In this document: positions 45,313 to 51,807 of the stretch, piece after piece
Numbering within the stretch: position 1 is the stretch's first letter
Layout: each line of letters begins with the position of its first letter
IMG/VR virus record: IMGVR_UViG_3300042453_003401
Span: 1 to 52,621 of that record
Source: a virus
Taxonomy: Duplodnaviria > Caudoviricetes
DNA: 52,621 bases
Direction: 5' to 3' (one strand)
The notes under the pieces: model-generated
Told to the model about the DNA's origin: nothing
Databases searched by the model: none
What the model saw: the letters and a program-made list of their open reading frames with translations, nothing else
Made by a program: the position numbers and the translations under genes

Positions 45313-45470
45313 CCGCACCATTAACCAAAGCGGAAGTCACTGCTCTTATTGATCAAAAGATAAGAGAGCATGAAATTCGCATTGGCGTGATTAGCGGCCT
45401 TGCGGGAGTCTTGTTTATCGCAGGACTCTCTTATTTTCTTTCCATTGTTTACCTTGCTACCATCAGATGA
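45309..45470 (+). CDS. Small membrane protein (53 aa)
   Basis: TTG start overlapping the upstream stop; EVTALIDQKIREHE followed by a hydrophobic segment. Confidence 0.55.
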   Translation: MTAPLTKAEVTALIDQKIREHEIRIGVISGLAGVLFIAGLSYFLSIVYLATIR

Positions 45471-45643
45471 GCGCCCCATTTATTCCTTTACCATTGCTCT
45501 CTGACAGAGAGTGGAAAGAGCTAAATGTGTTGCGCAAAGCCATTAGCGACAGCCCTTCAGCGGTGGTGCCAGAGCAGCAAGAGCGTTTTGCTGCATTGTT
45601 CGCTAGAAGCTTGCTTGGTAAAGGCGACAAGCCTTTAAAATGA
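45467..45643 (+). CDS. Small hypothetical protein (58 aa)
   Basis: ATGA-coupled; LSDREWKELNVLRKAISDSPSAVVPEQQERFAALFARSL. Confidence 0.55.
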   Translation: MSAPFIPLPLLSDREWKELNVLRKAISDSPSAVVPEQQERFAALFARSLLGKGDKPLK

Positions 45644-45655
45644 TTTTACTGCCCA

Positions 45656-46411
45656 TTGACCATGCCCCTTCCTGAAATTGACTTCCCGGACAAGGAGCAG
45701 CAATTGAAATATGGCGTGAAGGTGCTTCTGGAAGCTGGAATGACGCCTCAGCAAATTGAGCACATTCGCGACAGAGTGGGAGCAGGTCCGGGCAAGATTC
45801 CCTACACCAAAGAACTCACTGGATTGCGCCGGTATATGGTGCAGGAGCTTTTAGCGGCAAGTTTAAGCAACAGGCAAATTGCCGACATCTTGAAGCTAAG
45901 CAAAGAAACTGTTAGCGCCGATCGTCATCACAATCGCAACTTATGGACTGCTGAAATCCTTAAGAGCCAAGACACTTGGCGGGCACGGCTAATCAAAGAA
46001 CAAGGCGAACTCAAAGACAAAGCCCTCGAAAGCTTTGAACACAGCAAGCGCAAGAAAGTCACCACTTACAAGGAAGGGCCTGACGGCCCTGGCGAAACCA
46101 TTGTGCGTATGGAAGAAAGTGCTGGCGAAAGCGGCTTCCTTGGCATTGCCCGTAGCTGTCTGGAGCAGCAGGCAAAGCTAATTGGCCTGTTTGATGTGAA
46201 GCCACAAACGGAAGAGAAGAGCGGCTACAAAGCATTCCTTGATAATTTAAGCAAGGAAGTTCGCAAAATAAAAGAAGCTGAAAGCAATAGTGAAGTTAGA
46301 GCCACTGCCATTGATGCTGAGGCTTATTTCGACGAACAAGGAGAGCCCACTGGTCCCAGCAAGCCTTTGCTATTCGCGAATAGCGAACAGGACGATGGAG
46401 AGGAAAGTTAA
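45656..46411 (+). CDS. HTH protein, terminase small subunit-like
   Basis: HTH LSNRQIADILKLSKETVSAD, plus CLEQQAKLIGLFD as seen in a class of small terminase subunits. Confidence 0.5.
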   Translation: MTMPLPEIDFPDKEQQLKYGVKVLLEAGMTPQQIEHIRDRVGAGPGKIPYTKELTGLRRYMVQELLAASLSNRQIADILKLSKETVSADRHHNRNLWTAEILKSQDTWRARLIKEQGELKDKALESFEHSKRKKVTTYKEGPDGPGETIVRMEESAGESGFLGIARSCLEQQAKLIGLFDVKPQTEEKSGYKAFLDNLSKEVRKIKEAESNSEVRATAIDAEAYFDEQGEPTGPSKPLLFANSEQDDGEES

Positions 46412-46471
46412 TTATTTCTTAGCTTGACAGGCCCTCCCGCGCATCGCTACGCTTGATGGGACTGCTTTGTC

Positions 46472-46948
46472 TTGATGAATTTTTCGTTTGATTCTGTGGG
46501 CAACTTCCTTCGTAAAGCAAAGGAAGCAAAAGCCAGCAAGCGAGCAGCAATTGACGAAGGGCTTTTTCCATTGCTCACCGACCCTTCCACCTTCGCCATT
46601 GCTCCTGACGCTGCTGACCTGCTCGAGAAAAGCCTAGAACGCTATGGGGACGAAGCTCTCAAGGCAATGGCCATTGTGGCCCTTGGCAAGTGGGTGGAGC
46701 TGCATGGCACTTGGCTCGAGCAGCACATGCTCAACGGCGCCATCCAAGAAGCCGTATTGACTGCCTGCGACATGAACAAACTCACGCAAGCCGTCAGGCT
46801 CATGGAGGACGTGGGAAGCTTTGGAGGGGACGACGACTACAGGGCAGCCATGCGTCAGCAAATCAATCAGGCCGTGCTGGAAGGGCTTGAGGAAGCTGGT
46901 AAAGAGCCTTCTGACATCTTCGACCCTTACACCGACCCGTTGCTTTGA
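46472..46948 (+). CDS. Hypothetical protein
   Basis: 158-aa ORF preceded by TTGACA (46424) and a TACGCT -10-like box. Confidence 0.6.
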   Translation: MMNFSFDSVGNFLRKAKEAKASKRAAIDEGLFPLLTDPSTFAIAPDAADLLEKSLERYGDEALKAMAIVALGKWVELHGTWLEQHMLNGAIQEAVLTACDMNKLTQAVRLMEDVGSFGGDDDYRAAMRQQINQAVLEGLEEAGKEPSDIFDPYTDPLL

Positions 46949-47313
46949 TCATGGACTCCCTCCCGCCCATGGTCACCATTTGCATTCCGCCAGTGCTGCG
47001 GAAGGAAGCAGAAGATTTAGTGGCCGAAAACCCTCCCGTGCATCCTGCTTGGCAGAAAGTGGCACAGCGTGGCCGTCATTATTCTCTTCGCACCTCCTCC
47101 ATTGAAGACCTTGAAGAACTAGCCGACTGGGCCTATAGCTGGTTGATGGAGCCTGGTATGCCCTTGGACAAGACCAAGCGACAAGCTTTTCAAAGCATCA
47201 TCGCCAGAGCAGGCCGTCACGTTTTTCTGAAGCCCATTGGCAAGGGGCATTTCCTTGCAACTGGCTGGAAGCCGCCAAAGACTATAAGCAAGACTAATAA
47301 CTCTGCCCCTTGA
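46945..47313 (+). CDS. Hypothetical protein
   Basis: Coupled ORF. Confidence 0.55.
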   Translation: MIMDSLPPMVTICIPPVLRKEAEDLVAENPPVHPAWQKVAQRGRHYSLRTSSIEDLEELADWAYSWLMEPGMPLDKTKRQAFQSIIARAGRHVFLKPIGKGHFLATGWKPPKTISKTNNSAP

Positions 47314-47331
47314 CTCTGCCCCACTCTGCCC

Positions 47332-47706
47332 TTGATGATGGGCAAGTTCCTTCTCATTCCCTCCATGTCTTCCCGCATTAAAACCGAATCGTCTGGCGAA
47401 ACCACTGCCTTCACTACTGACGGCAAGCTCGTCATGAACTTTGGCAACCCTCACGTTGCATGGGGATTCTCCGTGAAAAGCCTTGAAGAATGGCTCATCA
47501 CGCTTGAAGAGGCCATGTCAGTGATGCCTGCTTGCCATAGTCGCTCCATTGAAACGCTCTATTTTTCCCTCAAGGCAGCACACAAACGCCACCTGCAGGA
47601 GCATGAAGCAGTGATCAGCGAAGCCCCTACTAACGACGACCTCATGGCCTATCTCACTTCTTATGCTGCCGCAATGACTTGCGAAGCAATGGAAGGGAGG
47701 AAATGA
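47332..47706 (+). CDS. Hypothetical protein
   Basis: ORF with uncertain start. Confidence 0.55.
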   Translation: MMMGKFLLIPSMSSRIKTESSGETTAFTTDGKLVMNFGNPHVAWGFSVKSLEEWLITLEEAMSVMPACHSRSIETLYFSLKAAHKRHLQEHEAVISEAPTNDDLMAYLTSYAAAMTCEAMEGRK

Positions 47707-47879
47707 TTTCCCTGCCTGTTTGCATGCCCTGGGAAGTGACGATCAAAAACGATGGCAATGTGAATATATTGTCCATCCTCGCTCCCACTAGGGAAAAAGC
47801 TCGCATCATTGCAGAAGAGCTTTACCCTCATAGTCACTACGACATCCAGCTTCAGCCCGACTGGGACGACGCATCGTGA
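47703..47879 (+). CDS. Hypothetical protein
   Basis: ATGA-coupled, with a GGAGG upstream and a terminator downstream. Confidence 0.55.
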   Translation: MISLPVCMPWEVTIKNDGNVNILSILAPTREKARIIAEELYPHSHYDIQLQPDWDDAS

Positions 47880-47884
47880 TCACT

Positions 47885-47905
47885 GGCTCCTTCGGGAGCC
47901 TTTTT
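47885..47905 (+). terminator. Intrinsic terminator
   Basis: GGCTCC-TTCG-GGAGCC-TTTTT. Confidence 0.8.
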
Positions 47906-48071
47906 CTTTGCCCATGAATGATCACCAGGGATGGGCTCTGTGGCATAGGTCCAGTCGTCATATTCTGGATCATTCCTCAGCCATCGTGCCAAACGCTCAC
48001 GCTCGCGTTCTTGTTCAGTCATTGGAAACTGGACAGCTTTCTATTGCGAGTCTAGCTGGCTTCCTATAGGC

Positions 48072-48265
48072 AAAAAAAGAAGGGCCTTGCGGCCCTTCTT
48101 CCTTTGCTTGAGCTTCCGATGCCACAGCCTCCCTCCCAAAGGGGAGCACTCCTCTCACTAGCCCATGCAATGCTAGGGACAGTCCTCGCGGAAAGTCCAG
48201 AGTGCTCAGCAGCGTCCACCCTTGCGGCGTCAGCGACGGGCCTTTCGGCCAGGACCAACTCAAGC
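48072..48265 (-). ncRNA. Putative structured non-coding RNA of unknown family, with its own promoter and terminator
   Basis: Extended -10 TG-C-TATGAT just upstream. Closing helix GCUUGAG/CUCAAGC, internal helix GAGCACUC/GAGUGCUC, GAAA and GCAA loops, and a terminal GCAA-loop terminator with U7. Confidence 0.65.
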
Positions 48266-48377
48266 TTGCAAATCATAGCACCACTACCAGCCACGGCAGC
48301 AAGCCTCACAATTGTGATACGGTAAACCTTGGCAGGGGCGACCCTCCGTAGTCTCACTTCTTCTTTTTCCTTTTCTG

Positions 48378-48734
48378 ATGCTTTTTCGTTTTCTTCTTTC
48401 AGCTTCCGTTGTTTTGGGCGCTCTGGTGCCTGTTGCAGCGGAGGCAAAATCGTCGTGCGGCTTGGCCAGTTGGTACGGCCCGGGCTTTCACGGCAATCTC
48501 ACTGCCAGTGGCGAACGCTTTAACTCTCGTGCCCTTACTGCCGCCCACAAGAGCTTGCCATTCGGAAGCCGCGTGCGAGTGGTCAATCAAGCCACGGGTC
48601 GCTCTGTGACGATCAAAATTAACGATGACGGGCCTCACGTTCCCGGTCGGATCATCGACCTTTCAGAAAGCGCATTCCGGCAAATTGCCAGCTTGGGGCA
48701 GGGTGTTGCCAAGGTTTGCATCAGTCGCGTATGA
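48378..48734 (+). CDS. rlpA: RlpA-like (DPBB) lytic transglycosylase with signal peptide
   Basis: GLASWYGPGFHGNLTASGERF, LTAAHKSLPFGSRVRV, INDDGP and RIIDLS motifs. Confidence 0.9.
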   Translation: MLFRFLLSASVVLGALVPVAAEAKSSCGLASWYGPGFHGNLTASGERFNSRALTAAHKSLPFGSRVRVVNQATGRSVTIKINDDGPHVPGRIIDLSESAFRQIASLGQGVAKVCISRV

Positions 48735-48759
48735 TCGTTGACGTGGAAGTTGGATCTCG

Positions 48760-48781
48760 GGGCACTTCGGTGCCCTTTTTT
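48760..48781 (+). terminator. Intrinsic terminator
   Basis: GGGCAC-TTCG-GTGCCC-TTTTTT. Confidence 0.8.
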
Positions 48782-48836
48782 GTTGTTAGTATTTACAAGT
48801 CGCCTTCAATGGTGCGCCCTATCAAGGGAAGAGTTG

Positions 48837-49049
48837 ATGTTCAATCCGAAAGCTCGTTTAGCCAGTCAATGGCAATGCAGCGTTTTAATGCTGCAGCAGC
48901 GTGGTCTATGTGCTTCTTGTACACAGCCATTGCAAGACAAGTTTGAGGCTCATCATCAGCGGCACTATTCAGAAGGCGGCGCTACATCCCTTCGGAATTT
49001 GGAGCTACTATGCCCAGCCTGCCATCGAGCAAAGCACAGCAAACACTGA
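48837..49049 (+). CDS. Minimal HNH nuclease domain protein
   Basis: LCASC...FEAHH...SEGGATSLRNLELLCPACHRAKH. Confidence 0.75.
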   Translation: MFNPKARLASQWQCSVLMLQQRGLCASCTQPLQDKFEAHHQRHYSEGGATSLRNLELLCPACHRAKHSKH

Positions 49050-50917
49050 TTGCTAAAGTGCTGCCCCAGCATCAACCCTACAGCCCTCGCGAGGGCCAGC
49101 TTGCGCTTGTCAAAAAACTTGCCGCTGATCCCACCATTCAAACTATCAAGGCCGTTTTCCCCACGGGATACGGCAAGACTGATGCCATTGAGCTTTCTTA
49201 TAAGCTTGCAAAGCTTCAAGGGCGCGTTGACGCGCTCATGATCATCGTTCCTTCAAAGGAGCAGCTTTCAAGCTACTTGAACGGTATTGAAGGTGATTTC
49301 CGCCGCAAATGGGGAGATGAAATTGTTGCCTATCGTATCAGCTCCAATCTGTTGAAGATCGTTGCTCGTGACGTGGTGCAGAATAAGTGCGAAGTGATTG
49401 TCGTCACTTGCCAAGCACTGATGTCGCCCAACAATCTTGACTTGGCTAAACGACTGCTTAAAGAATCTGGTCGCCGCTGGATGGTGGCACTTGACGAGTT
49501 GCATCGCTATGGAGAGGAGACGACTTGGGGTACCGTGGTAGGTAGCCTGCTTGAGGCTGGTCCCGAGTTGGTTCTTGGCCTTACCGCAGCAGAGCAGCGC
49601 ACTGATGGAATGCCAGTAGCGATGGCAAATCCTGACGAAACCATCGTAGTCTCTAGCACACAAGCCATCAAAGAAAAAGCAATCAGGCCATTTCGCGCCC
49701 ATGTACATGATTATTCTGTCACCGTTGAGCTTGAAGGAGAGTTTTATGATGTAACGACCAAAGAGCTGAGCGAACTCCAAGGTGAATACATTGAAAAGCG
49801 CAAGGCAGCGGGAGTGCCTGCCCATAAAGCGAAAGCAGAAGCTCGTGATTTTCTTGCTTACAAAGATAAATACATCAGTCCACTGGTGCAAAATGCTGTT
49901 GATTGCTTGAGAGATAAAAGGCAAAAGCTAGATCGCAATCACTTGCTGTCAACGAAGCATCACCGTTTGTTGGTTTTTGCTCGCGACCAGAAACATGCCG
50001 AACATTTGCAAAATTACTTTATTAAATACAACGATCTTGCTGCAGATTGGATTGGAGAAAAGCGTCCAGATGAGCTTAACGAGCGAGTGCTCAAAGATTT
50101 CATTGATGGTGAGTTGGATGTAATGATTAACGTCAATAAAGCATCAGAAGGTTTTAATTGCGTACAATGCAGCGTCATGTTATTTCTTAATGACGTAAAA
50201 CCAAGCGTGATGATTCTTCAGCAACTTGGGCGGGGCCTGCGTCGCAATTATGACATGGAATGGGAAACAGATATTTGCAATGTTTTCCTTAGTGAAGATC
50301 ATCCAGCCAAAGCTTATTTTCTTGATCAAGAAGCGCTACAGCCGCGTCAATTTATCAAAGATGGGCCGACTGATGGTCCAAGCACTTCTCCTATCTACGA
50401 CATTCCTCCTGTAATGTTTGGCGATGTAAGGCTCCAGGCCGTAAGGATTGTCGATGGAATGATGCAGAAACAAGACGCCGAGCCTATGCTTGTCGCCGTT
50501 AAGTCTCTTGTCGCCAGCCAAGGCAACCAGGAGCAGGCTGATTTAATGACACTGGAGCTAATGAAAGAGGCGCTGGTGCAGCTTAATTGGAATCAAGCAG
50601 AGCAAATTGTCCAAAGCACATCTGGTAGCACTGATCGACTGGAACAGGCTCGGCGTGCAAATGCTGAAGCAGTTAAAACGTTAGCCGGCAACATTGTTCG
50701 CGCATTGTCACTGGGCAACTTTAATAAATCAAGACTGCCTGATACCAACAAAGCAATCAATGTATTGCTTAAAAAGAAGTTTGGTTCTGGCACGGATTCA
50801 ATGGGGGAAAGCGAATTGATTGAGCGGCAAAATTACATCCGCGAAATCAATACAAAGCTTAAGGAGTCTCCCCATGAAGACTTTGCCAAATCATTCCCAA
50901 CCCTGTGCATTGCCTGA
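49010..50917 (+). CDS. Superfamily 2 helicase/ATPase (DExH, ResIII-like)
   Basis: Q-motif PREGQ, PTGYGKT, LDELH, GLTA, SEGFN and QQLGRGLR. Confidence 0.88.
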   Translation: MPSLPSSKAQQTLIAKVLPQHQPYSPREGQLALVKKLAADPTIQTIKAVFPTGYGKTDAIELSYKLAKLQGRVDALMIIVPSKEQLSSYLNGIEGDFRRKWGDEIVAYRISSNLLKIVARDVVQNKCEVIVVTCQALMSPNNLDLAKRLLKESGRRWMVALDELHRYGEETTWGTVVGSLLEAGPELVLGLTAAEQRTDGMPVAMANPDETIVVSSTQAIKEKAIRPFRAHVHDYSVTVELEGEFYDVTTKELSELQGEYIEKRKAAGVPAHKAKAEARDFLAYKDKYISPLVQNAVDCLRDKRQKLDRNHLLSTKHHRLLVFARDQKHAEHLQNYFIKYNDLAADWIGEKRPDELNERVLKDFIDGELDVMINVNKASEGFNCVQCSVMLFLNDVKPSVMILQQLGRGLRRNYDMEWETDICNVFLSEDHPAKAYFLDQEALQPRQFIKDGPTDGPSTSPIYDIPPVMFGDVRLQAVRIVDGMMQKQDAEPMLVAVKSLVASQGNQEQADLMTLELMKEALVQLNWNQAEQIVQSTSGSTDRLEQARRANAEAVKTLAGNIVRALSLGNFNKSRLPDTNKAINVLLKKKFGSGTDSMGESELIERQNYIREINTKLKESPHEDFAKSFPTLCIA

Positions 50918-51555
50918 TGAAACGCCCTGATCTCCCCGCTGATCATTGCGCAAATCAGCCGCCAGAAATGGCACGGAAAATGTTCGTGCAAAGCATTGCT
51001 CCACGCTTAAAGGGTGGCAGCATGGATGCCAGAAGCGCTATCTCGGAACTAGAAGGGTGGCGCGAATACCATCCCGAAGTGTTTGCCGACTGGGAAGGTC
51101 TTTGCTGGAAATACCTCCAGCAGCCTCCTGAGTGGGTAAACTGGCTGATCCAAGGCGTCAGGGTCACTTCCGGTAAAGTGACCAAGGCCGATGATTTAGT
51201 GGCGGCGGCGCAAGCTGCTGCCGATAAACCCCTAGCCAAGAACGGGGGTGATCGAATCTCCAAGATCGGCCTACGGGACCAGGGTAATAATGTAACCCTG
51301 GTCAGGGGGGATAGTGCCGACTATCTCCTTCGTCGTATCGCCAGGGACAGACCCGACTTAATGCCAGACATTGGCAAAAACAAGCGCTTTAAAAGCGCTC
51401 GTGCAGCAGCAATAGAAGCAGGCATCATCACCCCCTTCCCATCGCTCCAGCTCAAAGAGCCGCTGCCAACGGCTCAGAAGCTGCTGGCCAAGAAAGGCAA
51501 GGAATGGTGCCTGCAGCTCCTCGACGAGCTGTCGGCACTGGTCTTTGAGGACTAG
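50917..51555 (+). CDS. Putative DNA-binding protein (GGDRxS ... SARAAAIEAG family)
   Basis: TGATG-coupled to the helicase; KNGGDRISK, YLLRRIARDRPD and FKSARAAAIEAGII. Confidence 0.6.
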   Translation: MKRPDLPADHCANQPPEMARKMFVQSIAPRLKGGSMDARSAISELEGWREYHPEVFADWEGLCWKYLQQPPEWVNWLIQGVRVTSGKVTKADDLVAAAQAAADKPLAKNGGDRISKIGLRDQGNNVTLVRGDSADYLLRRIARDRPDLMPDIGKNKRFKSARAAAIEAGIITPFPSLQLKEPLPTAQKLLAKKGKEWCLQLLDELSALVFED

Positions 51556-51636
51556 CCAGTCTTGGAAAGAAAGGCAACGAGCCGGGCTCAGGGTCCGGCT
51601 CTTCCATTATTATTCCTTTTCCATCGTCCTTCCACC

Positions 51637-51807
51637 ATGCAGAACTTTCTAGCCCTTGCAGCGCTCTCGAGCATGCTCACGACACTGGCCTGGTCCTATG
51701 TGACGCAGCCGCTGCCGCCCGACAATCCGCGAGCCTATCACGAATGCAAGCAGCTCCACCCACAAAAATTCTGCGCTAGTAACTACATGCCCAACGCACA
51801 ACCATAA
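51637..51807 (+). CDS. Small secreted/membrane protein
   Basis: Hydrophobic N-terminus and a Cys pair. Confidence 0.5.
   Translation: MQNFLALAALSSMLTTLAWSYVTQPLPPDNPRAYHECKQLHPQKFCASNYMPNAQP

Follow-up and report, generated by a model that had tools for sequence, protein, structure and literature searches.

The region between positions 48072 and 48280 of the virus record IMGVR_UViG_3300042453_003401 (52,621 nucleotides (nt), analysed at full length and hereafter called the window) raises the question of whether a sequence lying divergently to the gene rlpA encodes an RNA of its own and, if so, of which kind. A sequence-only reading of the window had proposed a stand-alone structured non-coding RNA (ncRNA) of about 160 nt followed by a terminator, and this proposal was supported here by the promoter, the terminator, the covariation and the lack of a conserved reading frame among homologs. 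We have hardly any doubt that the locus is a genuine gene for a stand-alone structured RNA and that this RNA belongs to a new family. The explanation that we favour overall, and which we consider probable, is that of an independent structured-ncRNA gene belonging to an uncatalogued RNA family of S-CBS4-like cyanosiphoviruses.

Direct reading of the minus strand from 48280 to 48072 revealed an extended −10 element, an RNA body closed by a helix of 9 base pairs (bp; 48265-48106) and an intrinsic terminator, and every element that had been listed previously was located there. Reading of the homolog alignment added two further helices, Pa and Pb, the latter placed directly after Pa and directly before an invariant AUCGGA. 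The features of the locus are as follows:

48272-48280, minus strand: extended −10 promoter TGCTATGAT (TGnTAnnnT), from sequence reading and homologs
48257-48265, minus strand: 5′ strand of P1, GCUUGAGUU, which pairs with 48114-48106 and covaries
48106-48114, minus strand: 3′ strand of P1, AGCUCAAGC, which covaries with the 5′ strand
48214-48256, minus strand: 5′ domain, with junction G48256, helix Pa and the hairpins P2, P3 and P4 within Pa
48255-48252 with 48217-48214, minus strand: Pa, GUCC/GGAC
48250-48239, minus strand: P2, hairpin GGCC-GAAA-GGCC
48238-48228, minus strand: P3, small hairpin CGUC-GCU-GACG
48227-48220, minus strand: P4, arm CC-GCAA-GG
48121-48213, minus strand: 3′ domain, with Pb, P5 with its three-way junction, and P6
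48213-48209 with 48125-48121, minus strand: Pb, 5 bp, GCUGC/GUGGC
48207-48200 with 48151-48144, minus strand: P5, 8 bp, GAGCACUC/GAGUGCUC, enclosing P5a and P5b
48198-48177, minus strand: P5a, GGAC/GUCC arm
48176-48158, minus strand: P5b, CUAG(C)/(G)CUAG arm whose loop contains GCAUGG
48143-48131, minus strand: P6, variable hairpin, CCCU/AGGG
48115-48120, minus strand: single-stranded junction AUCGGA between Pb and P1, invariant in homologs
48072-48105, minus strand: A-rich linker and intrinsic terminator
48100-48077, minus strand: terminator, AAGAAGGGCC/GGCCCUUCUU as a GC-rich 10-bp stem capped by GCAA, followed by U7 at 48078-48072

The RNA is thus a three-way junction of P1, the 5′ domain (Pa around P2, P3 and P4) and the 3′ domain (Pb around P5, P5a and P5b, together with P6). 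Folding of the single sequence gave −90.9 kcal/mol (z = −2.9), a value equalled by one of 200 shuffled sequences, which is more than chance yet, taken alone, modest evidence. We accepted the RNA structure because the covariation among homologs was decisive. A pairing of UCC with GGA beside P1, present in the minimum free energy fold, was dropped in favour of GUCC/GGAC, which covaries.

Homologs were collected by several routes. Relatives of RlpA yielded 80 viral loci, in a subset of which blastn and nhmmer placed the RNA on the strand opposite to rlpA, upstream of that gene; six of these loci, among L008-L015, belonged to near-identical phages (96-99% identical over 45376-48478) and were uninformative for conservation. 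A motif with three anchors retrieved 42 viral contigs, representing 37 distinct sequences including the window. A covariance model, R1 (187 positions, 54 pairs), was built on a MAFFT alignment combined with a structure derived by hand; all viral members scored 103-182 bits with it, and one more, divergent member (L162, 85 bits) came from a scan without the 3′ anchor. A metagenome scan contributed 75 loci, 71 of them scoring 103-182 bits with R1. Altogether, the motif scans and R1 yielded 69 distinct homologs, drawn from viral and metagenome contigs. Blastn searches of a phage collection with the RNA or with the surrounding 12.6 kilobases (kb) found nothing; the copy in phage S-CBS4 was missed because it is too diverged, and it was reached through the motif scan only. 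A search with the helicase recovered only the window's own twin contig.

Covariation was evident even in a structure-naive MAFFT alignment, where 84.1% of the cells were paired compared to 71.1% in shuffles and the covariation score reached 0.382 (0.171 shuffled), a value attained by none of 500 shuffles and well above slid controls (0.08-0.14). On one measure, the number of further pair types, the naive alignment did not exceed the shuffles (88 vs. 89.2). RNAalifold applied to this alignment returned the same main helices. The score rose to 0.527 (0.187 shuffled) in a model-fitted alignment of 45 sequences (38 distinct) and to 0.555 (0.200 shuffled; slid controls 0.07-0.15) in one of 96 sequences (69 distinct). 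In this last alignment, 88.4% of the cells were paired compared to 68.8% in shuffles, both sides had changed in 42 of the 54 pairs, and none of 500 shuffles equalled it on any of the five measures. Predicted base pairs also made up 17 of the 20 top column pairs by mutual information (MI), which further recovered two Pb pairs placed wrongly by the model (79-261 and 80-260). Compensatory pairs therefore exceeded both the shuffled and the slid controls, and the elaborate fold is kept by selection. The sequence-only reading had proposed a structured RNA, to be abandoned if neither a transcript nor covariation was found; the helices do covary.

The individual helices differed in how they were maintained. 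The six modelled pairs of P1 were 99.5-100% paired and all six showed two-sided changes. Pa was formed in every one of the 69 sequences, two of which had C-G or U-G in place of U-A (GCCC/GGGC in L084 and GUCC/GGGC in L086). P5 was 98.7% paired, with two-sided changes in eight of nine pairs, and three pairs of Pb were 98% paired. P2 and P3 covaried and varied in length, and the loop of P4 was of the GNRA type in all 69 sequences. The weaker helices were inner P5a and P6 (70-75% paired), which were length-variable and poorly aligned. Compensatory changes in P1 were already visible in the diverged loci L013, L003, L007 and L018. G-U pairs were abundant (one pair of P1, for example, is U-G in 61 of the 69 sequences), which identifies the minus strand as the one that folds.

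Conservation was centred on the junctions and on helices that never covaried (G-GUCC-UGG, CC-GNRA-GG-GU-GGAC and AUCGGA), together with the CAUGG loop of P5b, while P2, P3, P5a and P6 changed freely in sequence, loop type and length. The search patterns themselves fix 20-25 of the apparently invariant positions, so that the features free of this bias are the CAUGG loop, the purine of the GNRA loop, the promoter, the terminator and the helices. The P5b loop read CAUG[GA] in 65 of 69 sequences and was forced by no search pattern. AUCGGA was kept in all homologs; two of the three patterns forced it, yet it was retained in L162, which was found without that pattern. The motifs GGUCCUGG and CCGnnAGGrUGGrC were in part forced. 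Neither inspection by eye nor MI supported pairing of the CAUGG loop or of AUCGGA with other conserved stretches.

The signals bracketing the RNA were conserved as well. TGnTAnnnT was found 16-20 nt before the P1 columns in each of the 75 distinct homologs for which 30 nt or more of upstream sequence was available, and from this fixed offset transcription is expected to start at the first base of P1, at about 48265 in the window. A terminator hairpin (−8 kcal/mol or lower) followed by at least four U was present in 71 of 74 distinct homologs; the other three had a hairpin and an interrupted U run. An automatic scan listed the terminator hairpin as a plus-strand site only, and the U7 run of the minus strand was read directly. 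The promoter and terminator recognized in the sequence-only reading are hence both conserved in homologs, at fixed places, as in an independent, intrinsically terminated RNA gene.

This layout, namely an own promoter, a U-tailed intrinsic terminator and conserved single-stranded motifs, is also typical of base-pairing regulatory small RNAs, and the exposed GCAUGG loop or AUCGGA might pair with host or phage mRNAs. We consider such a role improbable, given that the conserved unpaired stretches span just 5-6 nt and that conservation resides mostly in the helices and junctions of an 11-helix fold, which simple seed pairing would not need.

Further, we asked whether the locus might be a short protein gene or an element acting as DNA (an origin, a packaging site or an operator array). 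ORFs (open reading frames) of 127, 82 and 73 amino acids do overlap the RNA region in the window, and palindromes flank the RNA. However, the RNA body contained stops in all six frames in 14 of 38 homologs, and in the other 24 the open frame differed between lineages; homolog lengths ranged from 165 to 200 nt in steps that were not multiples of three. The earlier statement that no convincing ORF covers the RNA therefore holds, as no frame was conserved among the 38 homologs, and conserved coding, which had been named as an outcome that would speak against an RNA, was not found. The abundant G-U pairs make the structure strand-specific, which argues against a DNA element, and promoter and terminator bracket the RNA precisely. 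Both ideas are scarcely credible.

To place the RNA among known classes, the window was compared with the 4227 models of Rfam 15, counting as matches only scores at or above the gathering threshold of the family. The library presumably includes 6S, RNase P, signal recognition particle, Y-RNA-like, pRNA and c4/CI RNAs, hammerhead and other ribozymes and riboswitches, and we take it to include manA, wcaG, PhotoRC, raiA, ROOL, GOLLD and HEARO as well. No match at gathering score was obtained in the window, nor in 13 other loci (11 viral loci hit by the patterns, including the RNA-carrying L162, and two host loci). At E ≤ 10, the best match over 47900-48450 reached 20.7 bits against a gathering score of 107; matches overlapping the RNA body were far below gathering scores and mostly extended from the terminator hairpin. 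An E-value scan of seven homolog loci returned only a likeness of the terminator hairpin to ctRNA_p42d (24-27 bits vs. 50). A PhotoRC-I line (18.9 bits against a gathering score of 45) lay at an unrelated place in L096 and was discarded. ARAGORN reported no tRNA or tmRNA genes in the whole window. In line with these empty scans, the failure of the sequence-only reading to assign the RNA to a named class was justified.

Associated proteins were likewise searched for. The reverse transcriptase domain RVT_1, as would be expected for a retron, was detected neither in the window nor in five carrier phages of 95-100% completeness, and the terminator follows directly after the RNA. TROVE, the domain relevant to YrlA and Ro proteins, was likewise missing from the window and the five carrier genomes, and ARAGORN was empty for the window; a host-encoded Rsr was not searched for. 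No tyrosine integrase was found in the five carrier genomes. Literature on S-CBS4, on ncRNA of cyanophages and cyanosiphoviruses, on structured RNA motifs of phages and on CB0101 transcriptomes, supplements not covered, contained no report of the RNA, and passages of 10.64898/2026.09.22.753630 and PMC9964418 make no mention of it. With no relative among the Rfam models and no report in the literature searched, this is a new RNA family and fold.

Evidence for a transcript came from metatranscriptomes. Seven lake-water runs from seven studies each contained 5-9% of the sampled words of window 47000-49500, and four of them (X1-X4) were compared. A contig of X1 covered 48106-48248 and one of X2, from a different study, 48103-48241, both within the RNA body; depth over the RNA body was 4-8, compared to about 2 for the sole other phage pieces there (47577-47878). 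These contigs lend weak support to an abundant transcript, possibly trimmed to P1. They end in the two studies at 48106 and 48103, that is, at the 3′ end of P1, a weak hint that the P1 3′ strand may be the mature 3′ end of the RNA. The sequence-only reading had given the absence of a transcript, together with a lack of covariation, as grounds for rejection; contigs were obtained in two of the four runs, so that this outcome did not occur, albeit on weak transcript evidence.

A separate observation concerns the sequence at this end. In the lineage of the window, the invariant junction and the first P1 bases (48113-48120, minus strand) read AUCGGAAG, which we take to be the same eight letters as those near the start of a common sequencing adapter, and adapter trimmers might clip RNA-seq reads there. 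The X1 record consists of a 143-nt insert followed by eight letters resembling an adapter start.

The carrier is estimated to be 73% complete and encodes a head protease, a major head protein, a tape-measure protein, tail proteins, an endolysin, a primase/helicase and a Sak-like annealing protein; it is a siphovirus. The major capsid protein shares 88.5% identity with its counterpart in Synechococcus phage S-CBS4 (host Synechococcus sp. CB0101), and this match, together with the RNA copy in S-CBS4, proved the earlier guess of a cyanophage context right. The S-CBS4 copy occupies an unannotated 416-nt gap between the divergent, RlpA-like gp093 (‘lipoprotein precursor’) and gp092. About 2 kb from it (L125, record positions 61648-62379), gp086 is annotated as ‘Rnase E’. 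In the window, the ORF at 45656-46411 showed only a weak LuxR-type helix-turn-helix. The two immediate neighbours of the RNA are:

48378-48734, plus strand: rlpA, encoding a secreted RlpA-like DPBB protein, divergent neighbour (Pfam DPBB_1, E = 2.6e-27)
47852-48022, minus strand: conserved small ORF of 56 amino acids, downstream neighbour, EQERERL...YDDW...EPIPGD..W

The domain match substantiates the divergence from rlpA described previously, and in 35 of 37 distinct viral loci RlpA likewise stood upstream in divergent orientation; the remaining two had no upstream sequence. In the window, rlpA is followed by an HNH endonuclease and then a helicase. Four of the near-identical relatives (L008, L010, L014 and L015) match the window as far as 48469-48478, which lies inside rlpA, and again from 51801 on; the segment with the HNH endonuclease and the helicase is missing from them, and their RlpA shares just 58-60% identity with that of the window. 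This pattern suggests that recombination took place with a boundary inside rlpA and that an HNH-helicase module was inserted or replaced (48478-51801). The spacer of about 100 bp between the RNA promoter and rlpA holds a perfect 12-bp palindrome, TCACAATTGTGA (48306-48317). At the equivalent offset in the S-CBS4 lineage (48 nt ahead of the model start) a different 10-bp palindrome, TTCTTAAGAA, is found; in L162, CGGTTAACCG precedes the model start by 55 nt. These palindromes may be lineage-specific operators of the divergent promoters.

On the other side, the small ORF belongs to a family with the motif MKLSxEQERERL...YDPRNE..YDTW..G.EP[IL]PGD..W, sometimes fused to a longer N-terminal part, and had no match in Pfam or PHROG. 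It invariably neighbours the RNA, on a strand that changes from lineage to lineage. Downstream of the terminator (48030-48071), and at the same place in L084, L095, L096, L099 and L100, a conserved TTTTGC(C/T)TATAG/C is followed by GCTAGCTAGACTC and then ATAC; some lineages also carry perfect palindromes, GCTAGCTAGC or CCTAGCTAGG, roughly 40 nt downstream. The conserved element may serve the small ORF as promoter or operator. Within the 3′ part of the ORF, where the plus-strand gene block (ending at 47879) meets it, a GC hairpin with flanking T and A runs (GGCTCCTTCGGGAGCC, 47885-47900) probably acts as a terminator in both directions.

Riboswitches classically consist of a structured element with a terminator behind it, and in co-directional lineages the RNA might act in cis as a leader (riboswitch, attenuator or put-like antiterminator) governing read-through into the small ORF. 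To assess this, orientation was scored in 77 of 92 distinct loci, those with at least 450 nt downstream, after excluding 15 with too little downstream sequence: the ORF shared the strand of the RNA in 45 loci, ran convergently in 17 and escaped the strict motif in 15. The position is hence not the constant, co-directional one of a riboswitch or attenuating leader, and because the RNA unit ends against a convergent homologous ORF in 17 loci, it is not the leader of the small ORF. Inspection of the alignment disclosed no competing, conserved alternative pairing of aptamer and terminator; an A-rich linker separates the P1 3′ strand from the freely varying terminator, and in several lineages the promoter-like or operator-like element stands between terminator and ORF. 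Despite the same-strand conserved ORF within about 35-50 nt of the terminator in 45 of the 77 loci, we regard cis action as very unlikely.

How an independent RNA of this kind would act can be outlined from its pattern of conservation. A host-type RNA polymerase would start at the extended −10, with the first base of P1 beginning the transcript, which folds into the three-way junction of P1, 5′ domain and 3′ domain, transcription stopping at the intrinsic terminator. The RNA would then accumulate as a stable species, perhaps trimmed to the P1 helix. Invariant junctions with a variable periphery are typical of RNAs that act via a defined three-dimensional surface rather than a long antisense seed, and this pattern leads us to favour an RNA that acts in trans, its invariant core (G-GUCC-UGG, CC-GNRA-GG-GU-GGAC, AUCGGA and the CAUGG loop) serving as the putative partner-binding surface. 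The partner would most likely be a host or phage protein, and the RNA would work neither by antisense pairing nor as a cis-acting leader. We advance this fold-dependent binding mechanism, in which the RNA would form a ribonucleoprotein or act as a decoy, tentatively and at slightly short of an even chance.

The same invariant junction nucleotides and constant GNRA loop of P4, surrounded by variable peripheral helices, could instead form a catalytic or ligand pocket, as in a ribozyme or small-molecule sensor, or the self-complementary CAUG of the P5b loop (65 of 69 sequences) could drive loop-loop multimers in a self-assembling, RNA-only particle. The CGUG of L162 is still self-complementary via wobble pairs, although the palindrome is broken in three loop variants (CAUAA, ACCUGG and AAAUGG). 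Contigs stopping at the P1 3′ end in two studies would suit this group of explanations; against a ribozyme or sensor speak the missing match to any ribozyme or riboswitch model of Rfam and the absence of a regulated downstream gene in 17 loci, and neither a cleavage site nor a ligand can be inferred from sequence alone. Overall, we judge these explanations unlikely.

Several points weigh against the independent, partner-binding RNA gene that we prefer. Positions forced by the search patterns overstate the true conservation, and members lacking the motifs would be missed; the E-values of R1 are rough. The promoter is without a recognizable −35 and escaped the consensus two-hexamer promoter search of the automatic scan. 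In the 45 loci with a co-directional ORF 35-50 nt past the terminator, read-through coupling is possible in those lineages. The metatranscriptome contigs are assemblies of RNA libraries in which DNA carry-over is possible and from which strand, ends and level are not provable, and X3 and X4, uninformative either way like the parts of the region without contig cover, covered only 47392-47711 and not the RNA. Finally, the proposed binding role is read from the way in which the junctions keep invariant nucleotides while the peripheral helices covary and vary in length.

The distribution of the RNA was that of a phage gene. Each of the five near-complete (95-100%) carrier phages had exactly one copy. 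No copy was present in 68 of the 80 RlpA-bearing viral loci, and 15 of these, rescanned with filters off, all scored below 10 bits; L005 and L006 carried another, coding-like sequence upstream of rlpA. In a collection of species-representative genomes, 23 of 25 pattern matches on genome contigs were due to chance (all below 15 bits). The two genuine ones lay on small contigs of metagenome-assembled genomes (MAGs) labelled Bacteroidetes and Aquiluna (L127 and L136; 9.3 and 5.8 kb), which are probably phage contigs binned with the wrong organism. Other matches were likewise dismissed as chance: L158 and L160 (15.9 bits), L157 and others in high-GC, coding-like sequence; L165 within ORFs; and L166, a weak match antisense within an ftsH-like ORF and the sole one among 151 genomes of the family of a Synechococcus MAG. 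R1 had no match in 151 genomes of the same phylum, and no genuine copy was found in host chromosomes among the 302 cyanobacterial genomes searched. Within what was searched, the RNA gene is specific to phages and present once per genome.

The RNA represents a well-supported new class, comprising 69 distinct sequences in which almost all helices covary, and is carried by a widespread group of lake and estuarine cyanophages. Since it is also present in the cultured pair of S-CBS4 and Synechococcus CB0101, its expression, partners and phenotype are directly testable. A bolder idea, possible but on balance doubtful, is that it is the founding member of a new class of phage RNAs, an approximately 160-nt device (catalytic, ligand- or protein-binding, or self-assembling through CAUG) by which lytic cyanosiphoviruses take over picocyanobacteria; if true, it would be an RNA-based device for host takeover or counter-defence without a known counterpart.

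Complex-fold ncRNAs are rare, and most known classes proved to be ribozymes, riboswitches or ribonucleoprotein cores. The CI RNA of P4 and the c4 RNA of P1 are phage RNAs of about 70-80 nt from temperate elements, cloverleaf-like, processed to a stable core and acting by antisense pairing. The present RNA is also a small phage RNA, but at about 160-190 nt it is larger, its five carriers are without a tyrosine integrase and no Rfam match links it to them. Structured motifs of cyanophages, namely manA, wcaG, PhotoRC and the glutamine riboswitch, are named in PMC9964418. Although they too are structured RNAs on cyanophages, they differ in being short cis-regulatory motifs, mostly of T4-like cyanomyoviruses, and none matched here.

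Closer likenesses are found among RNAs that act through their fold. The pRNA of phi29-type phages, about 120-175 nt long and transcribed from its own promoter, is built around a three-way junction, makes RNA-RNA contacts through its loops and acts in trans in folded form. The RNA described here is likewise phage-encoded, of comparable size, with its own promoter and three-way junction. In contrast to pRNA, it has no Rfam match, its carrier is a siphovirus with a tape-measure protein rather than a phi29-like podovirus, and its gene is not adjacent to packaging genes, with no packaging role indicated. YrlA RNAs, which associate with Ro/Rsr, are structured and sometimes phage-encoded; they combine a closing stem with a multi-helix module and serve as protein-bound decoys or scaffolds. 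The RNA shares the structure, the phage location and the closing stem with a multi-helix module, but not TROVE in the window or the five carriers, a T-arm-like tRNA mimic (ARAGORN) or an Rfam match.

The raiA, ROOL and GOLLD RNAs are stand-alone genes with covariation-supported multi-junction folds, often phage-associated and of function not established. As a stand-alone gene with such a fold, the present RNA resembles them, whereas it matches none of their models and differs in host range (cyanosiphoviruses), helix topology and conserved core; it is also much smaller than ROOL and GOLLD, both of which are named in the abstract of 10.1101/2024.12.08.627333. The RNA shows no testable mark of membership in any one class; it would appear to work most like the complex-fold RNAs of phages and bacteria whose function is ribonucleoprotein-based or not established, represented by pRNA, Y-RNA-like RNAs, raiA, ROOL and GOLLD.

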